Positions 211-11,429 of a DNA stretch of 20,713 nt are shown piece after piece. The DNA comes from a virus. Taxonomy: Duplodnaviria > Heunggongvirae > Uroviricota > Caudoviricetes. Within the stretch, counting starts at the first letter, position 1. Each line of letters opens with the position of its first letter. The translations under genes were made by a program, and so were the position numbers. The notes under the pieces were generated by a model. It made no database searches. It was given only the letters and a program-made list of their open reading frames with translations, and was not told where the DNA came from. Location: positions 1 to 20,713 of IMG/VR virus record IMGVR_UViG_2703718869_000003. The stretch is one strand, 5' to 3'.

Positions 211-366
211 TTACTTCTCAGATTCGTAGTCTACGAAGACAGCGACCTCCGTCTGGCCGGTTCGGATTCGTACCTCGCAGAAGTCTTTCCTCGTTACCAG
301 TGCTATCACTACGACGGTAATACAGATGACGATCAGGGCGATTAACATCGCCTTTTGCTGCTTCAT
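211..366 (-). CDS. hok: Hok/Gef-family small membrane toxin (type I toxin-antitoxin toxin), 51 aa
   Basis: Not in the ORF track (below its size cutoff). My translation of the minus strand gives MKQQKAMLIALIVICITVVVIALVTRKDFCEVRIRTGQTEVAVFVDYESEK. It has a hydrophobic N-terminal helix and the conserved RKDxCE...Y-E motif, and closely resembles HokD/RelF as I recall it. A GGAG ribosome-binding site lies about 9 nt upstream. Confidence 0.8.
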   Translation of the reverse strand: MKQQKAMLIALIVICITVVVIALVTRKDFCEVRIRTGQTEVAVFVDYESEK

Positions 367-5062: not shown

Positions 5063-5283
5063 GGTACTATTTCCACTGTGATAGTTAGCACAATAATAAT
5101 TTCGCCAGAAACTATCGCGCCCTATACAGTGATCTACCTAACCTATGGAGCTGCCTTCCTCTGGTAGTGCCCTTACGGGCACGGATGTTACAGATCTGCC
5201 CCCTTGCCCCCTTCTTAGTAAAATTTCAAGCCAAATAATTTCACATGAAATTATTTCACAAAAAATAATCACCTTGATGAGGT

Positions 5284-5565
5284 CTATTCCTTCCGTATCG
5301 CTACTGGCGAAAGCATCCAGCCACGGCTGGCTCTCGCGTACTTCTGGACATACACCCGTAACCGGGTGTTGGCGCTCCGTCTTGCCCTGTTGCCCTTCCT
5401 GAACGATACAGGCTCCTTGTCCCACTCTTCCTGGTACACTCTCGCGTACTCTGCTGCAATTTTTACCCGGGTGGTCGGGTCTAGCTGTAACAATTGCTCC
5501 TGTATCCAGTCCCGATCAGCATCACAGTACTGCTCGGGCATAACCATTTTGATTTGCCTGTTCAC
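5284..5565 (-). CDS. Hypothetical protein in the cII position, basic C-terminus
   Basis: 93-aa ORF with a GTG start preceded by GGAGG at 5-nt spacing, 30 bp downstream of the cro stop. No sequence similarity to lambda CII that I can recognise. Confidence 0.6.
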   Translation of the reverse strand: MNRQIKMVMPEQYCDADRDWIQEQLLQLDPTTRVKIAAEYARVYQEEWDKEPVSFRKGNRARRSANTRLRVYVQKYARASRGWMLSPVAIRKE

Positions 5566-5595: not shown

Positions 5596-5798
5596 TTAAT
5601 CATCGCCTCTTACGAACGCAGGGAACGGTCGAACCTCTTCCGCCTCAACTCTGCCGTCATCAAAGGTTTTGACGTAAATTTCACGTCCGACAAGAAGCGC
5701 TTTACTGATCGCGCTCTGCGCCACACCAAAGTCCTTAGCGGCTTTCTTCTGACCGAACCTGTATACGTAATCAGCCAGGGTCTCTTTTTTCATCGCCA
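5596..5798 (-). CDS. cro: Cro repressor
   Basis: From the Met at 5798, [60 protein letters not shown] parallels lambda Cro (…[35 protein letters not shown]…AEEVKPFP). GAAGGAG ribosome-binding site 7 nt upstream. Divergent from cI. Confidence 0.9.
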
Positions 5799-5821
5799 TA
5801 ACTGACTCCTTCAAAATGCCC

Positions 5822-5894
5822 ATATCATTACGCACAGTTATTAAAATGTCAACACCGCAGATATTTCATTACATATAACCAAAGGTGATATGGT
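5822..5894. promoter_or_regulatory. oR-like operator/promoter region: three candidate operators, leftward pR for cro (-35 TTGACA on the minus strand at 5847-5852), rightward pRM for cI
   Basis: 75-bp divergent intergenic region. Sites at about 5822-5838 (ATATCATTACGCACAGT), 5848-5864 (TCAACACCGCAGATATT) and 5874-5890 (ATAACCAAAGGTGATAT) carry lambda-like half-sites (CACCGC / GGTGATA) at roughly 26-bp spacing. The cI ATG lies at the edge, consistent with a leaderless transcript. Confidence 0.55.
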
Positions 5895-6608
5895 ATGAAC
5901 ATGAAAAAGAAACCGTTAACCCCTGAGCAACTGGAAGACGCCAAGCGTCTGAAAAGTATTTTTAACGCTAAAAAGAAAGAGTTAGGCCTGTCGCAGGAAT
6001 CATTAGCCTATGAATTAGGTGTTACCCAAAGCGCTGTTAATCAGCTAATGGCTGGCATCAACGCCATAAATGCCAGCCACGCAGCACAGCTTGCTAAGAT
6101 ACTGAATGTAAAGGTCGGAGATTTCAGTCCCAGCCTGGCAAAATCTATTGCAGAAATGGCGCTCGCAATTGAAGAGCCATTAACTCGTGTCCCCGCTTAC
6201 GAATATCCGTTACTCTCCTGCGTACAAGCTGGCGCATTCTCAATGGATGATATTTCGTACACCGCAAAAGATGCGATTAAATGGATCTCCACCACCACAA
6301 AAGCCAGTGACAGGTCGTTCTGGCTGGAGGTCAAGGGGCATTCAATGACCGCACCGCAGGGTGGTAAACCCAGCTTCCCTGAAGGTATGCTGATACTCGT
6401 TGACCCTGAACGGGAAATCGAGGATGGCGATTTTTGCGTGGCCCGAATGAACGGCGATGAATTTACCTTCAAACGATTCATTCGTGAGAGCGGTAAAGCG
6501 TACCTGGAGCCGCTCAACCCACGATTCGACATGATTGAGTGTAACGAAAACTGCCAGTTTGTCGGAAAGGTCATCAAATCGCAGTGGAATGATGAGACTT
6601 TTGATTGA
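5895..6608 (+). CDS. cI: CI repressor (lambda cI-like; HTH N-domain plus S24 LexA-like autopeptidase C-domain)
   Basis: Starts [38 protein letters not shown]. Ala-Gly cleavage context VQAGAFS. C-domain [32 protein letters not shown]...[11 protein letters not shown] is close to lambda cI. Confidence 0.95.
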
Positions 6609-6702: not shown

Positions 6703-8172
6703 ATGCTTCAAAAGCTAGACGTCGCAGACAGCGTGCGTCGCGAGCTGTCTCCCCGTACCGCGCGTAAACACAAAGCTGAGTTCGGCCAGTTCATGACGCC
6801 TTCTGGCGTGGCCCGTTTTATGGCCTCCTTGTTTCCACCGAGCACAATGAAAACTTGCCGTCTACTGGACGCAGGCGCTGGTGTAGGCGCACTGTCTTGC
6901 GCCTTCCTCGACCGTTGGCTGGTTGGCGAGTTTGGCTTTGAGTCTGTCGAGGCAACAGCCTACGAAATAGACAAAAAGCTGTGTGGTCACCTTGCGAAGC
7001 ACTTAACCGGGTACAGGAGAGTGACGCCCCGCATCATCGAAGGGGATTATATTGAGCTGGCAACCGCCGAAGGTCTACAGGATCGAGGTTATACCCATGC
7101 AATACTTAATCCGCCTTACAAGAAGATCAATAGCCAGTCAGCCCACCGGCAGGCTCTTCGCACTGTCGGTATCGAGACGGTAAATCTGTATTCCGCCTTT
7201 GTTGCACTGGCTGTAGGTGAGGTTGCACCTGGCGGGCAGATAGTGGCCATAATCCCACGTAGTTTCTGCAACGGACCGTATTACCGTCCGTTCCGTAATT
7301 TCATACTTGAGCGGGCAGCAATCCGCCATATTCATTTGTTCGAATCACGTAGCAAAGCTTTCAGGGATGACGATGTGTTGCAGGAAAATATTATCATCCG
7401 CCTGGAGCGTGGAGGCCTTCAGGAGGCTGTTACAGTCACAACTTCGACCGATGATAGCTTTTTTGACCTGGTCACCTACGAACACCCATTTGACCAAATT
7501 GTGTACCCGGACGATTCGGAGCGGTTTATTCATGTGCCGACCACGCACGAGAAAAGCGCCATTGAGTTATCATCCGCCGTACAATGTTCGCTGGCTGATA
7601 TTGGCGTGAAGGTATCGACCGGACCGATAGTTGATTTCCGACTGAAAGCTCATTTGCGCAGCATGCCCGAAGAAGGAACTGTTCCCCTGATCTACCCGAG
7701 CCATTTGAGTATGAGTAGCACTGTCTGGCCTGTGGAAGGTTTGAAGAAACCCAACGCAATCATGCGCAACGACGAGACAGAAAAGTGGCTTTACCCGAAC
7801 GGTTTTTATTGTGTGGTGCGTCGTTTCTCGTCGAAGGAGGAAAAGCGCCGAGTGGTAGCAAGCGTCGTTGATCCTGCTACCTTCAGTGAGTATTCAGTGT
7901 TGGGATTTGAAAATCACATGAACGTGTTTCATGAGAACAAACATGGGTTACCCGAGGCGCTGGCCCGTGGCTTGGCCGTGTTCCTGAACACTACCGCAGT
8001 GGATAAGTATTTCCGTCGATTCAACGGGCATACACAGGTCAATGCAACCGACCTCAAGATGATTAAGTACCCAAGCCGTGACACTCTGATAGAGCTTGGC
8101 AAGTGGGCTATGCAACAAGAAACTCTCACGCAAGAACATATTGACGCTAAGCTAGGAGCTCTGACTGCATGA
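6703..8172 (+). CDS. N6-adenine DNA methyltransferase (NPPY class); putative M subunit of a PstI/BsuBI-like type II restriction-modification system
   Basis: FxTP motif (FGQFMTPSGVARFM), AdoMet-binding LLDAGAGVGAL, catalytic NPPY (HAILNPPYKK). 489 aa, about the size I recall for M.PstI/M.BsuBI. AAGAGG ribosome-binding site. Confidence 0.85.
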   Translation: MLQKLDVADSVRRELSPRTARKHKAEFGQFMTPSGVARFMASLFPPSTMKTCRLLDAGAGVGALSCAFLDRWLVGEFGFESVEATAYEIDKKLCGHLAKHLTGYRRVTPRIIEGDYIELATAEGLQDRGYTHAILNPPYKKINSQSAHRQALRTVGIETVNLYSAFVALAVGEVAPGGQIVAIIPRSFCNGPYYRPFRNFILERAAIRHIHLFESRSKAFRDDDVLQENIIIRLERGGLQEAVTVTTSTDDSFFDLVTYEHPFDQIVYPDDSERFIHVPTTHEKSAIELSSAVQCSLADIGVKVSTGPIVDFRLKAHLRSMPEEGTVPLIYPSHLSMSSTVWPVEGLKKPNAIMRNDETEKWLYPNGFYCVVRRFSSKEEKRRVVASVVDPATFSEYSVLGFENHMNVFHENKHGLPEALARGLAVFLNTTAVDKYFRRFNGHTQVNATDLKMIKYPSRDTLIELGKWAMQQETLTQEHIDAKLGALTA

Positions 8173-9122
8173 ACAACCAAAATGATTATATTGAGGCCGC
8201 TCAGCAAATTATAGCATCCTTAGGCCTGCCCAGAGCGCAGCAGAATGAGCGTTCTGCTTTGTGTTTGCTGGCACTCCTGAACCTCACACCGGGAAAAGCA
8301 TGGGCCAACGCGGAAAATCCGCTTGTGGGCATTACACCAATCATGAATTGGGTTCGGGAGCACTACGGCAAGGTCTACGCACCCAATACTCGTGAGACAT
8401 TCCGCCGCCAGTCTATGCATCAGTTCTGCGCTGCTGGAGTAGCCCTCTACAATCCGGACAAGCCCGATCGCCCAGTGAACAGCCCGAAGGCTGTTTATCA
8501 GATCGAACCTGCTGCTCTGTCCATGCTACGCACTTTCGGCAGCCCGGCATGGCACGATAGCCTTGCAACCTATTTAGCCGAGCGTGAAACGCTGGTTACC
8601 CGCTATGCTAAGGAGCGCGAACAGAATCGTATCCCTGTTGAAATTGCTGCGGGCCAGCAAATAACCCTCAGTCCCGGCGAGCACAGCGAACTTATCCGTG
8701 CCATAATAGAGGACTTCGCCCCACGTTTTGCTCCGGGTAGCGTGCTGGTCTATGCTGGCGACACTGGCGAAAAGTGGGGCTACTTCGACGCTCCACTGCT
8801 GGCCGGGCTAGGTGTTGATGTGGATTCACACGGTAAAATGCCAGATGTGGTGCTACATTTTACTGCGAAAAACTGGCTGCTACTGGTTGAGTCTGTCACC
8901 AGTCATGGACCGGTTGATGGGAAGCGGCATGCTGAGCTTGCCAGGCTGTTTGCCGGATCAACAGCCGGACTTGTCTATGTGACCGCTTTTCCAAATCGCT
9001 CCATCATGGGACGATATCTTGGTGAAATCGCATGGGAAACAGAGGTATGGGTGGCTGATGCACCTTCTCATCTTATTCACTTCAACGGAGTACGATTTCT
9101 TGGCCCCTACTCTACTGAATGA
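8169..9122 (+). CDS. Putative type II restriction endonuclease, BsuBI/PstI family (assignment by size, synteny and motif; not verified)
   Basis: 317 aa. Start overlaps the methyltransferase stop (ATGA). Contains a PD...E-like segment (GKMPDVVLHF...NWLLLVESVTSHG). Followed by an intrinsic terminator. Confidence 0.55.
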   Translation: MNNQNDYIEAAQQIIASLGLPRAQQNERSALCLLALLNLTPGKAWANAENPLVGITPIMNWVREHYGKVYAPNTRETFRRQSMHQFCAAGVALYNPDKPDRPVNSPKAVYQIEPAALSMLRTFGSPAWHDSLATYLAERETLVTRYAKEREQNRIPVEIAAGQQITLSPGEHSELIRAIIEDFAPRFAPGSVLVYAGDTGEKWGYFDAPLLAGLGVDVDSHGKMPDVVLHFTAKNWLLLVESVTSHGPVDGKRHAELARLFAGSTAGLVYVTAFPNRSIMGRYLGEIAWETEVWVADAPSHLIHFNGVRFLGPYSTE

Positions 9123-9142
9123 GTACAGGACCAGATAAATAG

Positions 9143-9169
9143 CCCGGCCCATGCGCCGGGTTTTTCTTT
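9143..9169 (+). terminator. Rho-independent terminator ending the cI/methyltransferase/endonuclease transcription unit
   Basis: Stem CCCGGC (9143-9148) / GCCGGG (9155-9160), 6-nt loop, then TTTTTCTTT. Confidence 0.65.
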
Positions 9170-9249
9170 GCATATCCCCTCCTGCTATCTGTCCCCTTCA
9201 AAAATAAATCACTTTAAAAATCAGTTAAGTAATATTTTCTTGCCCACAA

Positions 9250-9293
9250 TAACCACCAACGGTATTTACACAAAAATCACCGCAAGTTATATT
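9250..9293 (+). promoter_or_regulatory. pL-like promoter with overlapping oL-like operators
   Basis: -35 TTTACA (9265-9270), 17-bp spacer, -10 TATATT (9288-9293). The spacer contains AATCACCGCAAGTTAT, a lambda-operator-like half-site; an upstream ATAACCACCAACGGTAT is a second candidate. Confidence 0.5.
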
Positions 9294-9372
9294 TATTTCA
9301 AGCCAGAAACATCGCGCCCTTACACAGGGCTACATAAATCAGTCGTACGGCGCGACTTAACCCGCCGCAAAA

Positions 9373-9385
9373 TGCTCTTTAACAA
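9373..9385 (+). promoter_or_regulatory. boxA-like element (TGCTCTTTAACAA), identical to the E. coli rrn boxA core as I recall it
   Basis: Exact string about 80 nt downstream of the putative pL start; possible nutL-type or rrn-type antitermination site. Confidence 0.4.
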
Positions 9386-9689
9386 TCTGGAGCTTTACAG
9401 CGTCAATGACCTGTTTAGACCCCTACACGTAAACGTGCTGTATCATCGGGTGCGATCCGGTCGATGAGAGAGTATCCCCGCGCGAGAGCGAGAACGGCGT
9501 GAGAACGGGCAACACTGGCAGGAAGTTGGCGCTGACCAATACAGGGAAGGTTTTGGGGTGCAGGCAGCACCGCCAAAGCATTTCCGAGAAAGGATGGTAT
9601 TGACTGCGTGTGATGTCGGGGCTATATTTGGCGAACACCTCATAAAACGGGTGTCGGGATTAGGACCCCGCTGACAATCGAGGCGATAC

Positions 9690-9711
9690 AGACGCGCTAG
9701 CGTCTTTTTTT
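9690..9711 (+). terminator. Rho-independent terminator (tL-like) in the pL leader
   Basis: Stem AGACGC / GCGTCT with GCTA loop, followed by a run of 7 T. Confidence 0.7.
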
Positions 9712-9876
9712 GTATCGACATGCACGCACATCTTATCAATGGTGGGCTGTATGGGGCCGACTTCGGTCGGGCTGGTTCCCTTGATTGCCAGTAGTCCTAA
9801 CCCTGTACAGTCCACCGCCAGCGAGTTTAGGACCTCCGGCGGTGGTTATCAATCACCAATCAAGGAGGCTGCCACC

Positions 9877-10521
9877 ATGGCTACTATATCTCCCCTTTCT
9901 CGCCCATCCGTAACTATTGAAAACGGCAATGCCATCACTACGTCAATTGACATCGCAGAGTTCTTTGAGAAGCAGCATCACCATGTTGTTCAGAAAATAG
10001 AATCCCTTGAATGCTCTGAACAATTCTTAACCAGCAACTTTTCGCGGGTTAAATTCGAACACCGGGGTAATACCTATAACGCCTATCAAATCACCAAAAA
10101 CGGCTTCGTCTTCCTGGTGATGGGCTTCACTGGTAAAAAAGCCGCCGCTTTCAAAGAAGCCTACATCGCTGAATTCGATCGCATGGAAAAACAGCTATGG
10201 GAACAGAAACAACTGGCCCTGTCTTCTCCTGCGATGAATATCAATTTCCCTTTGTCGTGGTTTTCTGAGCATCACCCCTACGCCACGATGAATTATGTTG
10301 ATCGAAAAACATTGCAGCTTGATACCTCCGTCTTATTCGACATGCCAAGCCCTGCAATGCGCATATTTAATGAATTACGTCGCAACGGCTATAACGTTGA
10401 CGCCGCTGTCGCTGAATTTAACGCCTTCAAACATCTGACGGAAGAAATGCGCCGTACACTACAGGATATTTCAAGATTGTCAGATCAAAATGCCCGAAAA
10501 GGCTTCTCTGTAAGCCTCTAA
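9877..10521 (+). CDS. Rha-family phage regulatory protein / antirepressor-like, with a C-terminal domain shared with the next gene
   Basis: Start chosen at the ATG at 9877 (AAGGAGG 8 nt upstream) rather than the ORF-track start at 9739. N-terminal region ITTSIDIAEFFEKQHHHVVQKIE...YQITKNGFVFLVMGF resembles the Rha family from memory. Confidence 0.75.
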   Translation: MATISPLSRPSVTIENGNAITTSIDIAEFFEKQHHHVVQKIESLECSEQFLTSNFSRVKFEHRGNTYNAYQITKNGFVFLVMGFTGKKAAAFKEAYIAEFDRMEKQLWEQKQLALSSPAMNINFPLSWFSEHHPYATMNYVDRKTLQLDTSVLFDMPSPAMRIFNELRRNGYNVDAAVAEFNAFKHLTEEMRRTLQDISRLSDQNARKGFSVSL

Positions 10522-10559
10522 AGAACTAATAGTTTGACAAAGAACTAATAGTTTGACAA
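10522..10559 (+). repeat. Perfect 19-bp tandem direct repeat (AGAACTAATAGTTTGACAA x2), each copy with a TTGACA hexamer
   Basis: Seen directly, immediately after the Rha-like stop codon. Confidence 0.8.
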
Positions 10560-10608
10560 TGCCGCAGCGCTTATCGCATACTGACCGCACTACAACGTCA
10601 GCGGTCAA

Positions 10609-10637: not shown

Positions 10638-10790
10638 TGCCTGTTCACAGGTATCGCCATATCAATGGCGGGTCGAGAGAGCCTAATACAACACCCTTTC
10701 GGGAAATACGCTCCGCCGTCTGACGCGGTAGTTGAAGCCCGCCACCCCACTAAGGTGGCAGTCAATACTAAAACGTCAGGAGTCATGATT

Positions 10791-11429
10791 ATGGCTAATC
10801 AACTCATCCCCGTATTCAACGGCACCATATCCAACGAAACAACTCTTTTAGTTAACGCTCGTGATCTACATTCTTTTCTTGGTGTGGGCAGAATGTTCGC
10901 GCACTGGGTTAAAGAGCGCATTGCTGAATATGGATTCGTTGAAAGCCAGGACTATATTTTGATTTGCCAAAATGGGCAAACCAAAGGTCGAGGAGGTAAT
11001 CGCCGTAGCAAGGACTACCACCTAACTCTCGACACAGCCAAAGAGCTGGCAATGGTTGAGCGCAACGAAAAAGGCCGCCAGATACGCCGCTACTTCATTG
11101 AGTGCGAGAAAAAGTTTCGCCAGAGTCTTTTACCTACACCAATGAACATCAACTACCCTCTCTCGTGGTTCTCAGATAACCATCCCTACGCCACGATGAA
11201 CTATGTTGATCGCAAGGTTATCAGCCTTGATGCTTCCGTGCTCTTCGATATGCCAAGCCCAACTATGCGCATCCTCAACGAGCTACACAGCAAGGGCTAT
11301 AACGTCGATGCAGCTGTCGCCGAATTTAACGCCTTCAAGCATCTGACGGAAGAAATGCGCCGTAAATTGCTGGATATTTCCCGCACATCGGAAAAGTCTT
11401 CCCGCTTTGGTTTCAACGTAAATCTTTAA
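10791..11429 (+). CDS. AntA/AntB-type antirepressor-like protein, with the same C-terminal domain as the Rha-like gene
   Basis: Start at 10791 (AGGAG 8 nt upstream). N-terminal LIPVFNGTISNETTLLVNARDLHSFLGV...QDYILICQNGQTKGRGGNRRSKDYHLTLDTAKELAMVERNEKGRQIRRYFIECEK resembles AntA-type antirepressors from memory. The C-terminal 95 aa is a paralogue of the Rha-like C-terminus. Confidence 0.75.
   Translation: MANQLIPVFNGTISNETTLLVNARDLHSFLGVGRMFAHWVKERIAEYGFVESQDYILICQNGQTKGRGGNRRSKDYHLTLDTAKELAMVERNEKGRQIRRYFIECEKKFRQSLLPTPMNINYPLSWFSDNHPYATMNYVDRKVISLDASVLFDMPSPTMRILNELHSKGYNVDAAVAEFNAFKHLTEEMRRKLLDISRTSEKSSRFGFNVNL

Follow-up and report, generated by a model that had tools for sequence, protein, structure and literature searches.

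How does a lambdoid prophage without an N gene express its early-left genes when an intrinsic terminator lies between the promoter pL and the first of them? The question is raised by positions 9170-9876 of a 20,713 nt stretch of Caudoviricetes DNA (IMG/VR record IMGVR_UViG_2703718869_000003, positions 1 to 20,713; hereafter the window). The source of the window is an Eru1/Oslovirus prophage of the P13374/TL-2011c type, carrying Shiga toxin 2a (Stx2a): the interval 9100-9900 matches one E. coli chromosome at 100% and is 95-98% identical to the Stx2a phages P13374, TL-2011c, phi191, PA2 and VT2phi_272 (genus Oslovirus). Eru1 phages lack N, CII and CIII altogether, and lysogenic instability has been examined for two of them (PMC8044961). 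A description of the interval made from the letters alone (the sequence-only reading) saw a pL leader with an rrn-type boxA, a hairpin, a terminator and no N gene, and proposed antitermination by RNA or host factors. All the features it listed are present where it placed them; the observation is confirmed and the interpretation partly supported. We consider the chances about even that 9170-9876 is the untranslated leader of a CI-controlled early-left operon with two stacked RNA devices, a judgement that covers the explanation with both devices together.

The boxA string TGCTCTTTAACAA at 9373-9385 (plus strand) is the single exact copy in the window, where simple arithmetic gives a chance expectation of about 6e-4 for an exact 13-mer in 2 x 20.7 kb. 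It is identical to UGCUCUUUAACAA, which we take to be the rrn boxA consensus, so that the rrn core recognised by the sequence-only reading is exact. A boxA-like string stands at this position in 24/24 representative sequences of the family described here, and is kept in all classes. Downstream of boxA, covariance model R1 and covariation support a conserved structured leader RNA of about 140 nt at 9398-9534 (plus strand). In brief, the helices P1 (9398-9405/9527-9534), P2 (9410-9415/9517-9522) and P3 (9421-9423/9507-9509) are stacked and close a junction of three hairpins, P4 (9426-9437, 4 bp with an A-rich loop), P5 (9438-9472) and P6 (9475-9502). The hairpin noticed earlier at 9443-9467 is real and forms the core of P5, but the fold is neither a boxB nor the put-like pair of stem-loops that had been envisaged. 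As defined by R1, the family consists of boxA, a spacer of about 12-16 nt and P1-P2-P3 around three hairpins, with the P5 core CGGGYGCGAUCCGGUCG; the window fits this definition, and variants of the P5 core exist, such as CGGCGGCGAACCGG. With filters off, 9398-9534 scores 199.8 bits over the full length of R1, whose alignment includes the window sequence; independent evidence for the fold comes from covariation.

The fold and R1 were derived from IMG/VR instances recovered by pattern, and the alignments used for covariation were fitted to R1. Among 62 distinct sequences, 94% of cells are paired and 20 of the 42 pairs show double-sided changes. In 26 more diverse sequences P2-P7 are 94-100% paired, with double-sided changes in 22/42 pairs; their covariation score is 0.275, compared with 0.114 for shuffled controls (none of 500 is as high) and 0.03-0.06 when the partners are slid. 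P1 does not stay in register from class to class of the alignment, yet each class has a P1 with its own sequence (CAGCGUCA/UGGCGCUG, GCACU/GGUGC, GCACAU/GUGUGC, CAGCAC/GUGCUG or GUCACA/UGUGAU). The HK225 element (locus L003, 3000-3173) is a hybrid of a class-A 5' part and a class-B 3' strand of P1, its P1 being retained through G-U pairs only (GCGUC / GAGGUGC). Searching Rfam with 9120-9900 at E<=10 left the leader RNA unmatched and returned only C4, isrK, a weak overlapping c4-a1b1 match and a chance match to Acido-1. The literature on phi80 nutL and on put-like elements gave nothing relevant, and it should be noted that older papers may discuss the phi80 leader as 'nutL'. So far as accessible literature and databases show, the boxA-linked leader RNA appears to be undescribed. 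It also appears to be the new part of this locus, since the lack of N and the isrK-C4 arrangement described below are already known.

The leader is not confined to Stx2a phages. Window positions 9373-9560 are 93-94% identical to phi80 (X13065 and the prophage of TOP10/DH10B-type strains), Klebsiella phage KO-TP1 and, over 9373-9523, HK225, and the flanks are unrelated; for the structured RNA itself (9398-9534) the identity to these three is 93-95%. With Edwardsiella phage Edno5 the identity is 78% over a shorter core, 9418-9502. Leader conservation, which the sequence-only reading had proposed as a check, is thus found together with covariation. Using the hairpin-core pattern, we obtained 120 matches in IMG/VR, of which 103 are true instances falling into 24 clusters at 95% identity. 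The element occurs in 249/5426 complete E. coli genomes (about 5%), and in 147 E. coli genomes it is at least 99% identical, mostly through recent spread. When genome contigs were scanned with the P5 pattern, 2/120 rows were real and the rest were chance matches in GC-rich genomes. The match is unannotated in all 25 E. coli records listed and in the other records inspected, among them those of phi80 and HK225. Each locus has a single copy, downstream of pL in each annotated phage checked, and the genes directly following it are unrelated to each other across loci. In three cases an intrinsic terminator lies 0.15-0.7 kb after the element: in the window (the IsrK terminator, below), in HK225 (L003, 3821-3838) and in phi80 (L001, 4648-4666). 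Homology to rrn leaders was considered and rejected, as the K-12 matches that start exactly at boxA are phi80 prophages of DH10B/TOP10-type strains.

In phi80, HK225 and KO-TP1, boxA and the element come after the pL leader start CATCGAAACGAAACATCGA...GCCAGCGGCG; in HK639 the same start is followed by an RNA annotated as 'putL-like antiterminator RNA'. We scanned IMG/VR for this start and classified the 137 loci that have enough downstream sequence. The slot is occupied by the element in 69 loci, by HK639-type put RNA in 29 and by a sequence that we call typeX in 13; the remaining 26 mostly have boxA and a short boxB-type hairpin. As N-like open reading frames (ORFs) we counted relatives of the P22/933W-type N, with an arginine-rich motif (ARM) such as MNS(R/K).. 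and a C-terminal CLPxVA..AG.RK. Within 1.6 kb such ORFs were found in 0/69 element loci, 0/29 put-like loci, 0/13 typeX loci and 20/26 of the remainder. No boxA is present in put-like loci (0/32), and R1 gave no match on the put, typeX and nutL loci searched. These results assign the element to the slot in which nutL/N and putL function, and boxA links it to the host Nus factors.

Given its position after pL, its boxA and the missing N, we read the element as a candidate N-independent, boxA-linked antitermination RNA. On comparative sequence grounds, 9373-9534 is a candidate cis-acting signal, functionally analogous to putL or nutL. The boxA-linked RNA may even represent a third kind of phage early antitermination besides nut/N and put, one that would work with NusB/E and no phage protein and would make the pL-initiated polymerase resist both intrinsic and Rho-dependent terminators. 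We put this forward tentatively, at somewhat less than an even chance. The earlier proposal of RNA-based or host-factor antitermination thereby gains comparative support, in the form of a conserved boxA-linked RNA in the putL/nutL slot without N, and the put homology raised with it does not hold.

Several other features of these leaders were observed. TypeX is a different boxA-linked leader sequence of about 170 nt that contains CTCCTGGCAAA, and is seen in the first ~250 nt after the pL leader start of L131, L178, L184, L187, L202, L211 and L221, among others. It may be another unannotated leader RNA, and could be a fourth kind of signal. In L139, L161 and L220 the gene that immediately follows a divergent element copy encodes a 51-aa mini-N (MNSKQKRRAWRHERRQNEREIL...LFAAGFRKSESLTAR); this protein retains the arginine-rich N-terminus and the C-terminal motif, and the middle of the P22/933W-type N is gone. 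A mini-ORF with a strong Shine-Dalgarno sequence, AGAGGAG-N7-ATG AAG CAC TAA followed by GCGGACAGACCGC, is conserved behind several different leader modules, after the element or typeX, with the variants MKQ*, MQQ*, MEH* and MK* (examples are L089, L103, L108, L131, L181, L216 and L221). It is not present in the window. The leaders are closed by a variable stem (GGGRTGTGGTG ... CACCACAYCACCAAAGC) that often has inserts bearing tRNA-like T-arm sequences. Stem inserts or tRNA-like fragments are seen in L157, L185, L188, L193, L203 and L213, and ARAGORN predicts a tRNA-Ile in L157 (8159-8228, minus strand), ~130-200 nt after the pL leader start. The Eru1 phages PA2 and VT2phi_272 have about 105 additional bases in the region of this stem. 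In the window, a tRNA scan found none, and comparison by eye with related leaders shows a short stem, GGGGUGC-AGGCA-GCACC(G)CC followed by CAAAGCAUUUC, at 9555-9574 (plus strand), which is a remnant of the long variable stem.

The terminator that the sequence-only reading placed at 9690-9711 is real and clean, with a hairpin at 9690-9705 and a U-run, and it is the sole clean plus-strand intrinsic terminator between 9.2 and 20.7 kb. It is not a bare barrier in the leader, however. A full-length Rfam match (RF01394, positions 1-77, 64.2 bits against a gathering threshold of 50) identifies 9635-9710 as the small RNA (sRNA) IsrK, and a promoter-like site that matches the consensus, TTGACT-17-TATATT, lies at 9600-9628 (plus strand), the IsrK match beginning 7 nt past its -10 hexamer. 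With an Rfam match and a promoter-like site of its own, IsrK accounts for the terminator as its 3' end. Its 5' part is weakly similar to c4-a1b1 (RF03163, 18.6 bits, below the cut-off of 46.7). The C4 antisense RNA follows at 9735-9822 on the same strand (RF01695, 78.9 bits against 45, full-length 1-87). The sequence-only reading had overlooked the promoter-like site, IsrK and C4.

C4 exposes two single-stranded stretches, CCUUGAUUG (9779-9787) and GUCCUAA (9794-9800). Their predicted mRNA targets are UUAGGAC (9827-9833) and CAAUCAAGG (9857-9865), the latter overlapping the Shine-Dalgarno sequence AAGGAGG (9862-9868) of the ATG at 9877, and copies of the targets lie inside IsrK, UUAGGAC at 9660-9666 and CAAUCGAGG at 9675-9683 (all plus strand). 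The C4 loops thus have exact or G-U complements in the same order both downstream, at the Shine-Dalgarno sequence, and upstream, inside IsrK; the energies of the C4-target duplexes are better than those of 295/300 shuffles. The resulting layout is a1b1-c4-a2b2. Since C4 and its targets fill the 165 nt after the terminator, we regard 9600-9876 as a known translational-control module. Its assignment by sequence to the P1-immI/Gifsy-1-isrK type is secure, and its mechanism is taken from the homologues.

The gene behind the module, rha, is in frame with an ATG at 9739 inside C4, which joins the frame equivalent to orf45 to that of rha; in public records this ATG is taken as the start of the Rha gene (260 aa; L002, 6640-7425). 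Several PHROG 'transcriptional regulator' families, e.g. phrog_29966 and phrog_995, match translated C4, which suggests that some protein families contain translated non-coding RNA. Other E. coli islands have the isrK-C4 cassette too, beside ash/icd-like genes. Part of the isrK transcription of Gifsy-1 passes the IsrK terminator into orf45-anrP, and IsrK supplied in trans lifts anrP translation about 140-fold (PMC4825925).

Comparison with known systems places the element and the module as follows. The HK022 putL/putR and HK639 putL-like RNAs are cis-acting RNAs directly downstream of pL in phages without N, as the element, with its presumed activity, would be. HK639 is annotated with a left-operon copy only, again as for the element, and its put RNA has the same pL leader start as the element in phi80 and HK225. 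The put RNAs nevertheless share no sequence or structure homology with the element, which is twice as long, forms a multi-helix junction and is always preceded by boxA. Antiterminators of the put type act alone on RNA polymerase, and mutations of the beta-prime zinc-binding domain block them. The nutL sites of lambda, P22 and 933W, with N, have the same leader position with boxA first and occupy the same slot in sister loci, and the terminator shortly downstream of the element resembles lambda tL1. In contrast to lambda, no short hairpin stands 6-8 nt after boxA; P1 begins after 12 nt. The nearest small hairpin is P4, 40 nt from boxA, inside the junction and with a variable loop, whereas a boxB is a short hairpin that follows boxA within a few nt and has a purine-rich loop of GNRA-like type. 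Neither the window nor any of the 69/69 canonical loci has N, and there is no nutR-like partner, or any boxA, after cro in the window.

In rrn antitermination (NusB/E, NusA, NusG, SuhB and S4) the boxA core is identical to that of the window, no phage protein takes part, as proposed here, and a long untranslated RNA is protected. An rrn leader has a boxB hairpin upstream of boxA and boxC downstream; here a hairpin lies upstream of boxA, at 9341-9357 in the window and adjacent to boxA in phi80-type leaders, and the sequence downstream is unrelated to rrn leaders. Complexes of the rrn type act chiefly against Rho and only weakly on intrinsic terminators, whereas the obvious barrier in the window is an intrinsic terminator.

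The P1/P7 immI region (a1 b1 - c4 - a2 b2 - icd - ant) has the same order of elements and the same C4 fold (RF01695), with two loops complementary to the ribosome-binding-site region of the first gene and to upstream copies, and an anti-repressor gene downstream. C4 of this type is processed from the very transcript that holds its target. There, according to the work attributed to Citron and Schuster and to Biere et al., C4 reportedly blocks the ribosome-binding site of the first gene, which leads to Rho-dependent polarity on ant. In the window icd is absent, the first gene is of the Rha family and in frame with C4, the upstream copies lie in the separately terminated sRNA IsrK, and the cassette is inside a lambdoid pL operon. 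Another related locus is isrK-orf45-anrP-isrJ of Gifsy-1 (Hershko-Shalev et al. 2016, PMC4825925). As in the module here, IsrK is made from its own promoter and ends at a terminator that leaks, behind which come a C4-like region and then an anti-repressor-like gene, and IsrK is complementary to downstream RNA. Unlike the window, Gifsy-1 has a separate orf45 coupled to anrP; in the window this frame is fused to rha, with a strong Shine-Dalgarno sequence before the ATG at 9877, and the cassette lies after pL and a boxA leader. An Rfam scan of the window gave no isrJ match.

We propose the following working model. In the lysogen, CI would repress pL. The isrK promoter would yield IsrK, most transcripts ending at the IsrK terminator (tIsrK) and slight read-through supplying C4, as homology with Gifsy-1 suggests. 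The C4 loops, which are complementary to UUAGGAC and CAAUCAAGG at the rha Shine-Dalgarno sequence, would pair there and keep translation of Rha and AntB off. Because IsrK bears both target sites, it may compete for or titrate C4, or remodel the RNA produced by read-through, as has been demonstrated for IsrK of Gifsy-1. Once CI is inactivated, transcripts from pL bear boxA and the P1-P6 domain. The boxA on the nascent transcript would recruit NusB/NusE, and the folded domain would replace boxB and N, either by contacting the elongation complex itself or by keeping the Nus factors on it. The resulting complex would pass tIsrK, resist Rho over the ~580-nt untranslated leader and express rha, antB, kil, gam, recT and exo. 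When transcription begins at the isrK promoter, polymerase has no such signal and would mostly stop, giving IsrK.

Several points speak against this model. Antitermination is argued entirely from position, boxA and the missing N; the single-sequence folding energy is ordinary (z = -0.87); and the P5 core, having served as the search pattern, is to some extent bound to look invariant. An R1 search gave no second copy of the element in pR operons, unlike lambda nut and HK022 put. For the isrK-C4 device, the differences in detail from Gifsy-1, where orf45 is separate and coupled to anrP, count in the same direction. The fold could be a nut-type site of complex form, or else a feature of the leader that has nothing to do with termination. 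On the former explanation an N-type protein would be needed, either unrecognised here or supplied by another lambdoid prophage, with P4 or P5 acting as boxB; E. coli strains that make Shiga toxin (STEC) commonly hold several such prophages. Divergent variants of the element do stand immediately before N genes with an ARM, the N being of 75 aa in Edno5 and L044 and the 51-aa mini-N in L139, L161 and L220, and this coexistence suggests that the element may have arisen within nut-type leaders. P4, a 4-bp hairpin with an A-rich loop, would also suit, and 'N' is the name given in the phi80 record to the 98-aa gene that follows the element. This 'N', however, has no arginine-rich N-terminus, matches only PHROG 25091 (unknown function) and is found in 6/104 loci. 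The loop of P4 is not conserved (UAAA, AAAA, AGAAA, CAAA, UUAA or AAUG), and Edno5 has an ordinary nutR, boxA and GCGCC-GAUACA-GGCGC, the boxB of which has no visible equivalent in the Edno5 element. With N-like ORFs in none of the 69 canonical loci as against 20/26 of the remainder, and nothing in the window similar to any N tested, we consider a nut-type site improbable. That the element belongs, in diverged form, to the HK022/HK639 put family is hardly credible to us. The position after pL and the lack of N are put-like, but R1 gives 8 bits on HK022 putL/putR (E=7, off target) and no significant match in HK639 or the put-like loci searched, and a local comparison by eye gives only short shared strings. 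The put loci also lack boxA, and put consists of two stem-loops of ~70 nt compared with a ~140-nt junction of six helices; membership was therefore rejected.

The fold may instead have another job, such as RNA processing or stability, translational control of the next gene or release of an sRNA, and no effect on intrinsic terminators; boxA would then only shield the leader from Rho, and downstream genes would be expressed by passive read-through of the IsrK terminator. We regard this as unlikely, yet it deserves to be taken seriously. boxA alone counters Rho in untranslated RNAs, e.g. rRNA and CRISPR arrays, and by eye the long variable stem that ends related leaders recalls the RNase III hairpin of the lambda N leader. 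In Gifsy-1, read-through of isrK occurs without a known antiterminator (PMC4825925). This would leave unexplained, however, why one and the same site holds now the element, now put, now boxA-boxB/N, and why N is missing exactly where the element or put is present, and the unrelated downstream genes argue against gene-specific translational control. Alternatively, the element could be an inherited remnant in this prophage: the isrK-C4-rha cassette would have replaced the following gene, and isrK or internal promoters (e.g. 10553-10582) would serve the early-left genes. Homology to phi80-type leaders does end near 9590, just before the isrK promoter, the cassette is found in unrelated ash/icd-like islands, and a promoter-like site precedes antB. 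Here too the evidence is divided: the element is complete and intact, as are boxA, the remnant of the leader stem, and pL with its operator-like sites, and the near-identity of the element in the 147 E. coli genomes adds weak evidence, given the recent spread. We think that a mere remnant is quite improbable.

The framing of 9170-9876 as the pL leader is sound, as judged from the order of genes: cI, accessory genes, a terminator, pL and then the early-left genes. The oL/pL region spans 9249-9293 (plus strand). The predicted promoter, TTTACA-17-TATATT at 9265-9293, has 10/12 consensus matches in its hexamers, and between these lies a lambda-type operator-like 17-mer (9275-9291, 11/14); a second site, 9249-9265, was chosen by eye. 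The plausible pL with operator half-sites in the sequence-only reading is present, and its position agrees with the annotated O-L/pL of phi80 and HK225. The top operator-like 17-mer of the window is oR (5874-5890, 13/14), and the window-wide count of such 17-mers is not above chance. CCGGCGGTGGTTAT (9836-9849), just upstream of the rha Shine-Dalgarno sequence, is an inverted copy of the operator-like ATAACCACCAACGG (9249-9262) at pL and resembles a lambda-type operator half-site; this may be chance or a CI site at the start of rha. The small hairpin before boxA, AGUCGUACGGCGCGACU (9341-9357, plus strand), was flagged by a terminator scan and lies 15 nt before boxA, and phi80-type leaders have a different hairpin immediately before boxA.

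The ORFs of the gap also agree with the sequence-only reading: those in 9163-9876 are short, implausible or run through the promoter. Those submitted to PHROG from 9168-9674 matched no family (a 12-codon ORF was too short and was left out), and the sole PHROG matches in the gap are to the translated C4 region. No N-like ORF was found in the interval by ORF inspection and PHROG searches of small ORFs, nor did tblastn with the phi80 'N', the N of Edno5 and further leader-proximal proteins match anywhere in the window. This fits what is already published for Eru1 phages (PMC8044961).

As a whole, the window corresponds to the immunity and early genes of a lambdoid-type prophage. Its minus strand encodes Q (566-1075), NinG, a primase, a DEAD-box helicase and Cro (5596-5835). 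A hok/sok-type toxin-antitoxin adjoins Q at 156-535 on the minus strand (Rfam sok 361-535, 118 bits), with a 51-aa Hok-like ORF (211-366, minus strand) that begins MKQQKAMLIALIVICITVV. AT-rich direct repeats tgtgaaataatttcatgtgaaattatttggcttgaaatttt at 5225-5290 (minus strand reading), in a non-coding gap downstream of small pR-proximal ORFs, may be an origin or iterons. On the plus strand, the S24/HTH CI repressor (5895-6608) is followed at 6703-9122 by an Eco57I-type methylase and a BsuBI/PstI endonuclease, which form a type II restriction-modification pair and lie within the cI operon at the place of lambda rexAB. An intrinsic terminator at 9141-9162 (plus strand; the minus strand scores too) closes this operon. 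After pL come rha, antB, kil, gam, recT and exo. The Rha-family regulator or anti-repressor-like gene (9877-10521, plus strand) is assigned from Pfam Phage_pRha (4.9e-26), PHROG anti-repressor families and the annotation of P13374 ORF29, and the second gene of the operon is an AntA/AntB-type anti-repressor (10665-11429, plus strand). A promoter-like TTGACA-18-CATACT lies between them (10553-10582), and RecT and a YqaJ exonuclease follow on the plus strand.

The Eru1/Oslovirus Stx2a phages include P13374 of the O104:H4 outbreak, TL-2011c, and PA2 and VT2phi_272 from O157:H7 strains. For their left operon, the leader RNA is a concrete candidate for the means of passing terminators without N. The first two genes behind the leader encode anti-repressor-type proteins under a predicted IsrK/C4 RNA switch, and the candidate leader RNA and the switch are both relevant to prophage induction and, through it, to the release of toxin. 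If the proposed function fails, the region would be an ordinary mosaic of a known sRNA cassette and a conserved leader. If it is true, a protein-free, boxA-dependent antiterminator RNA would connect the rrn, nut and put mechanisms, and this third kind of signal would be shared by phi80, HK225 and the Stx2a phages of hypervirulent STEC, O104:H4 among them, and carried by about 5% of complete E. coli genomes.

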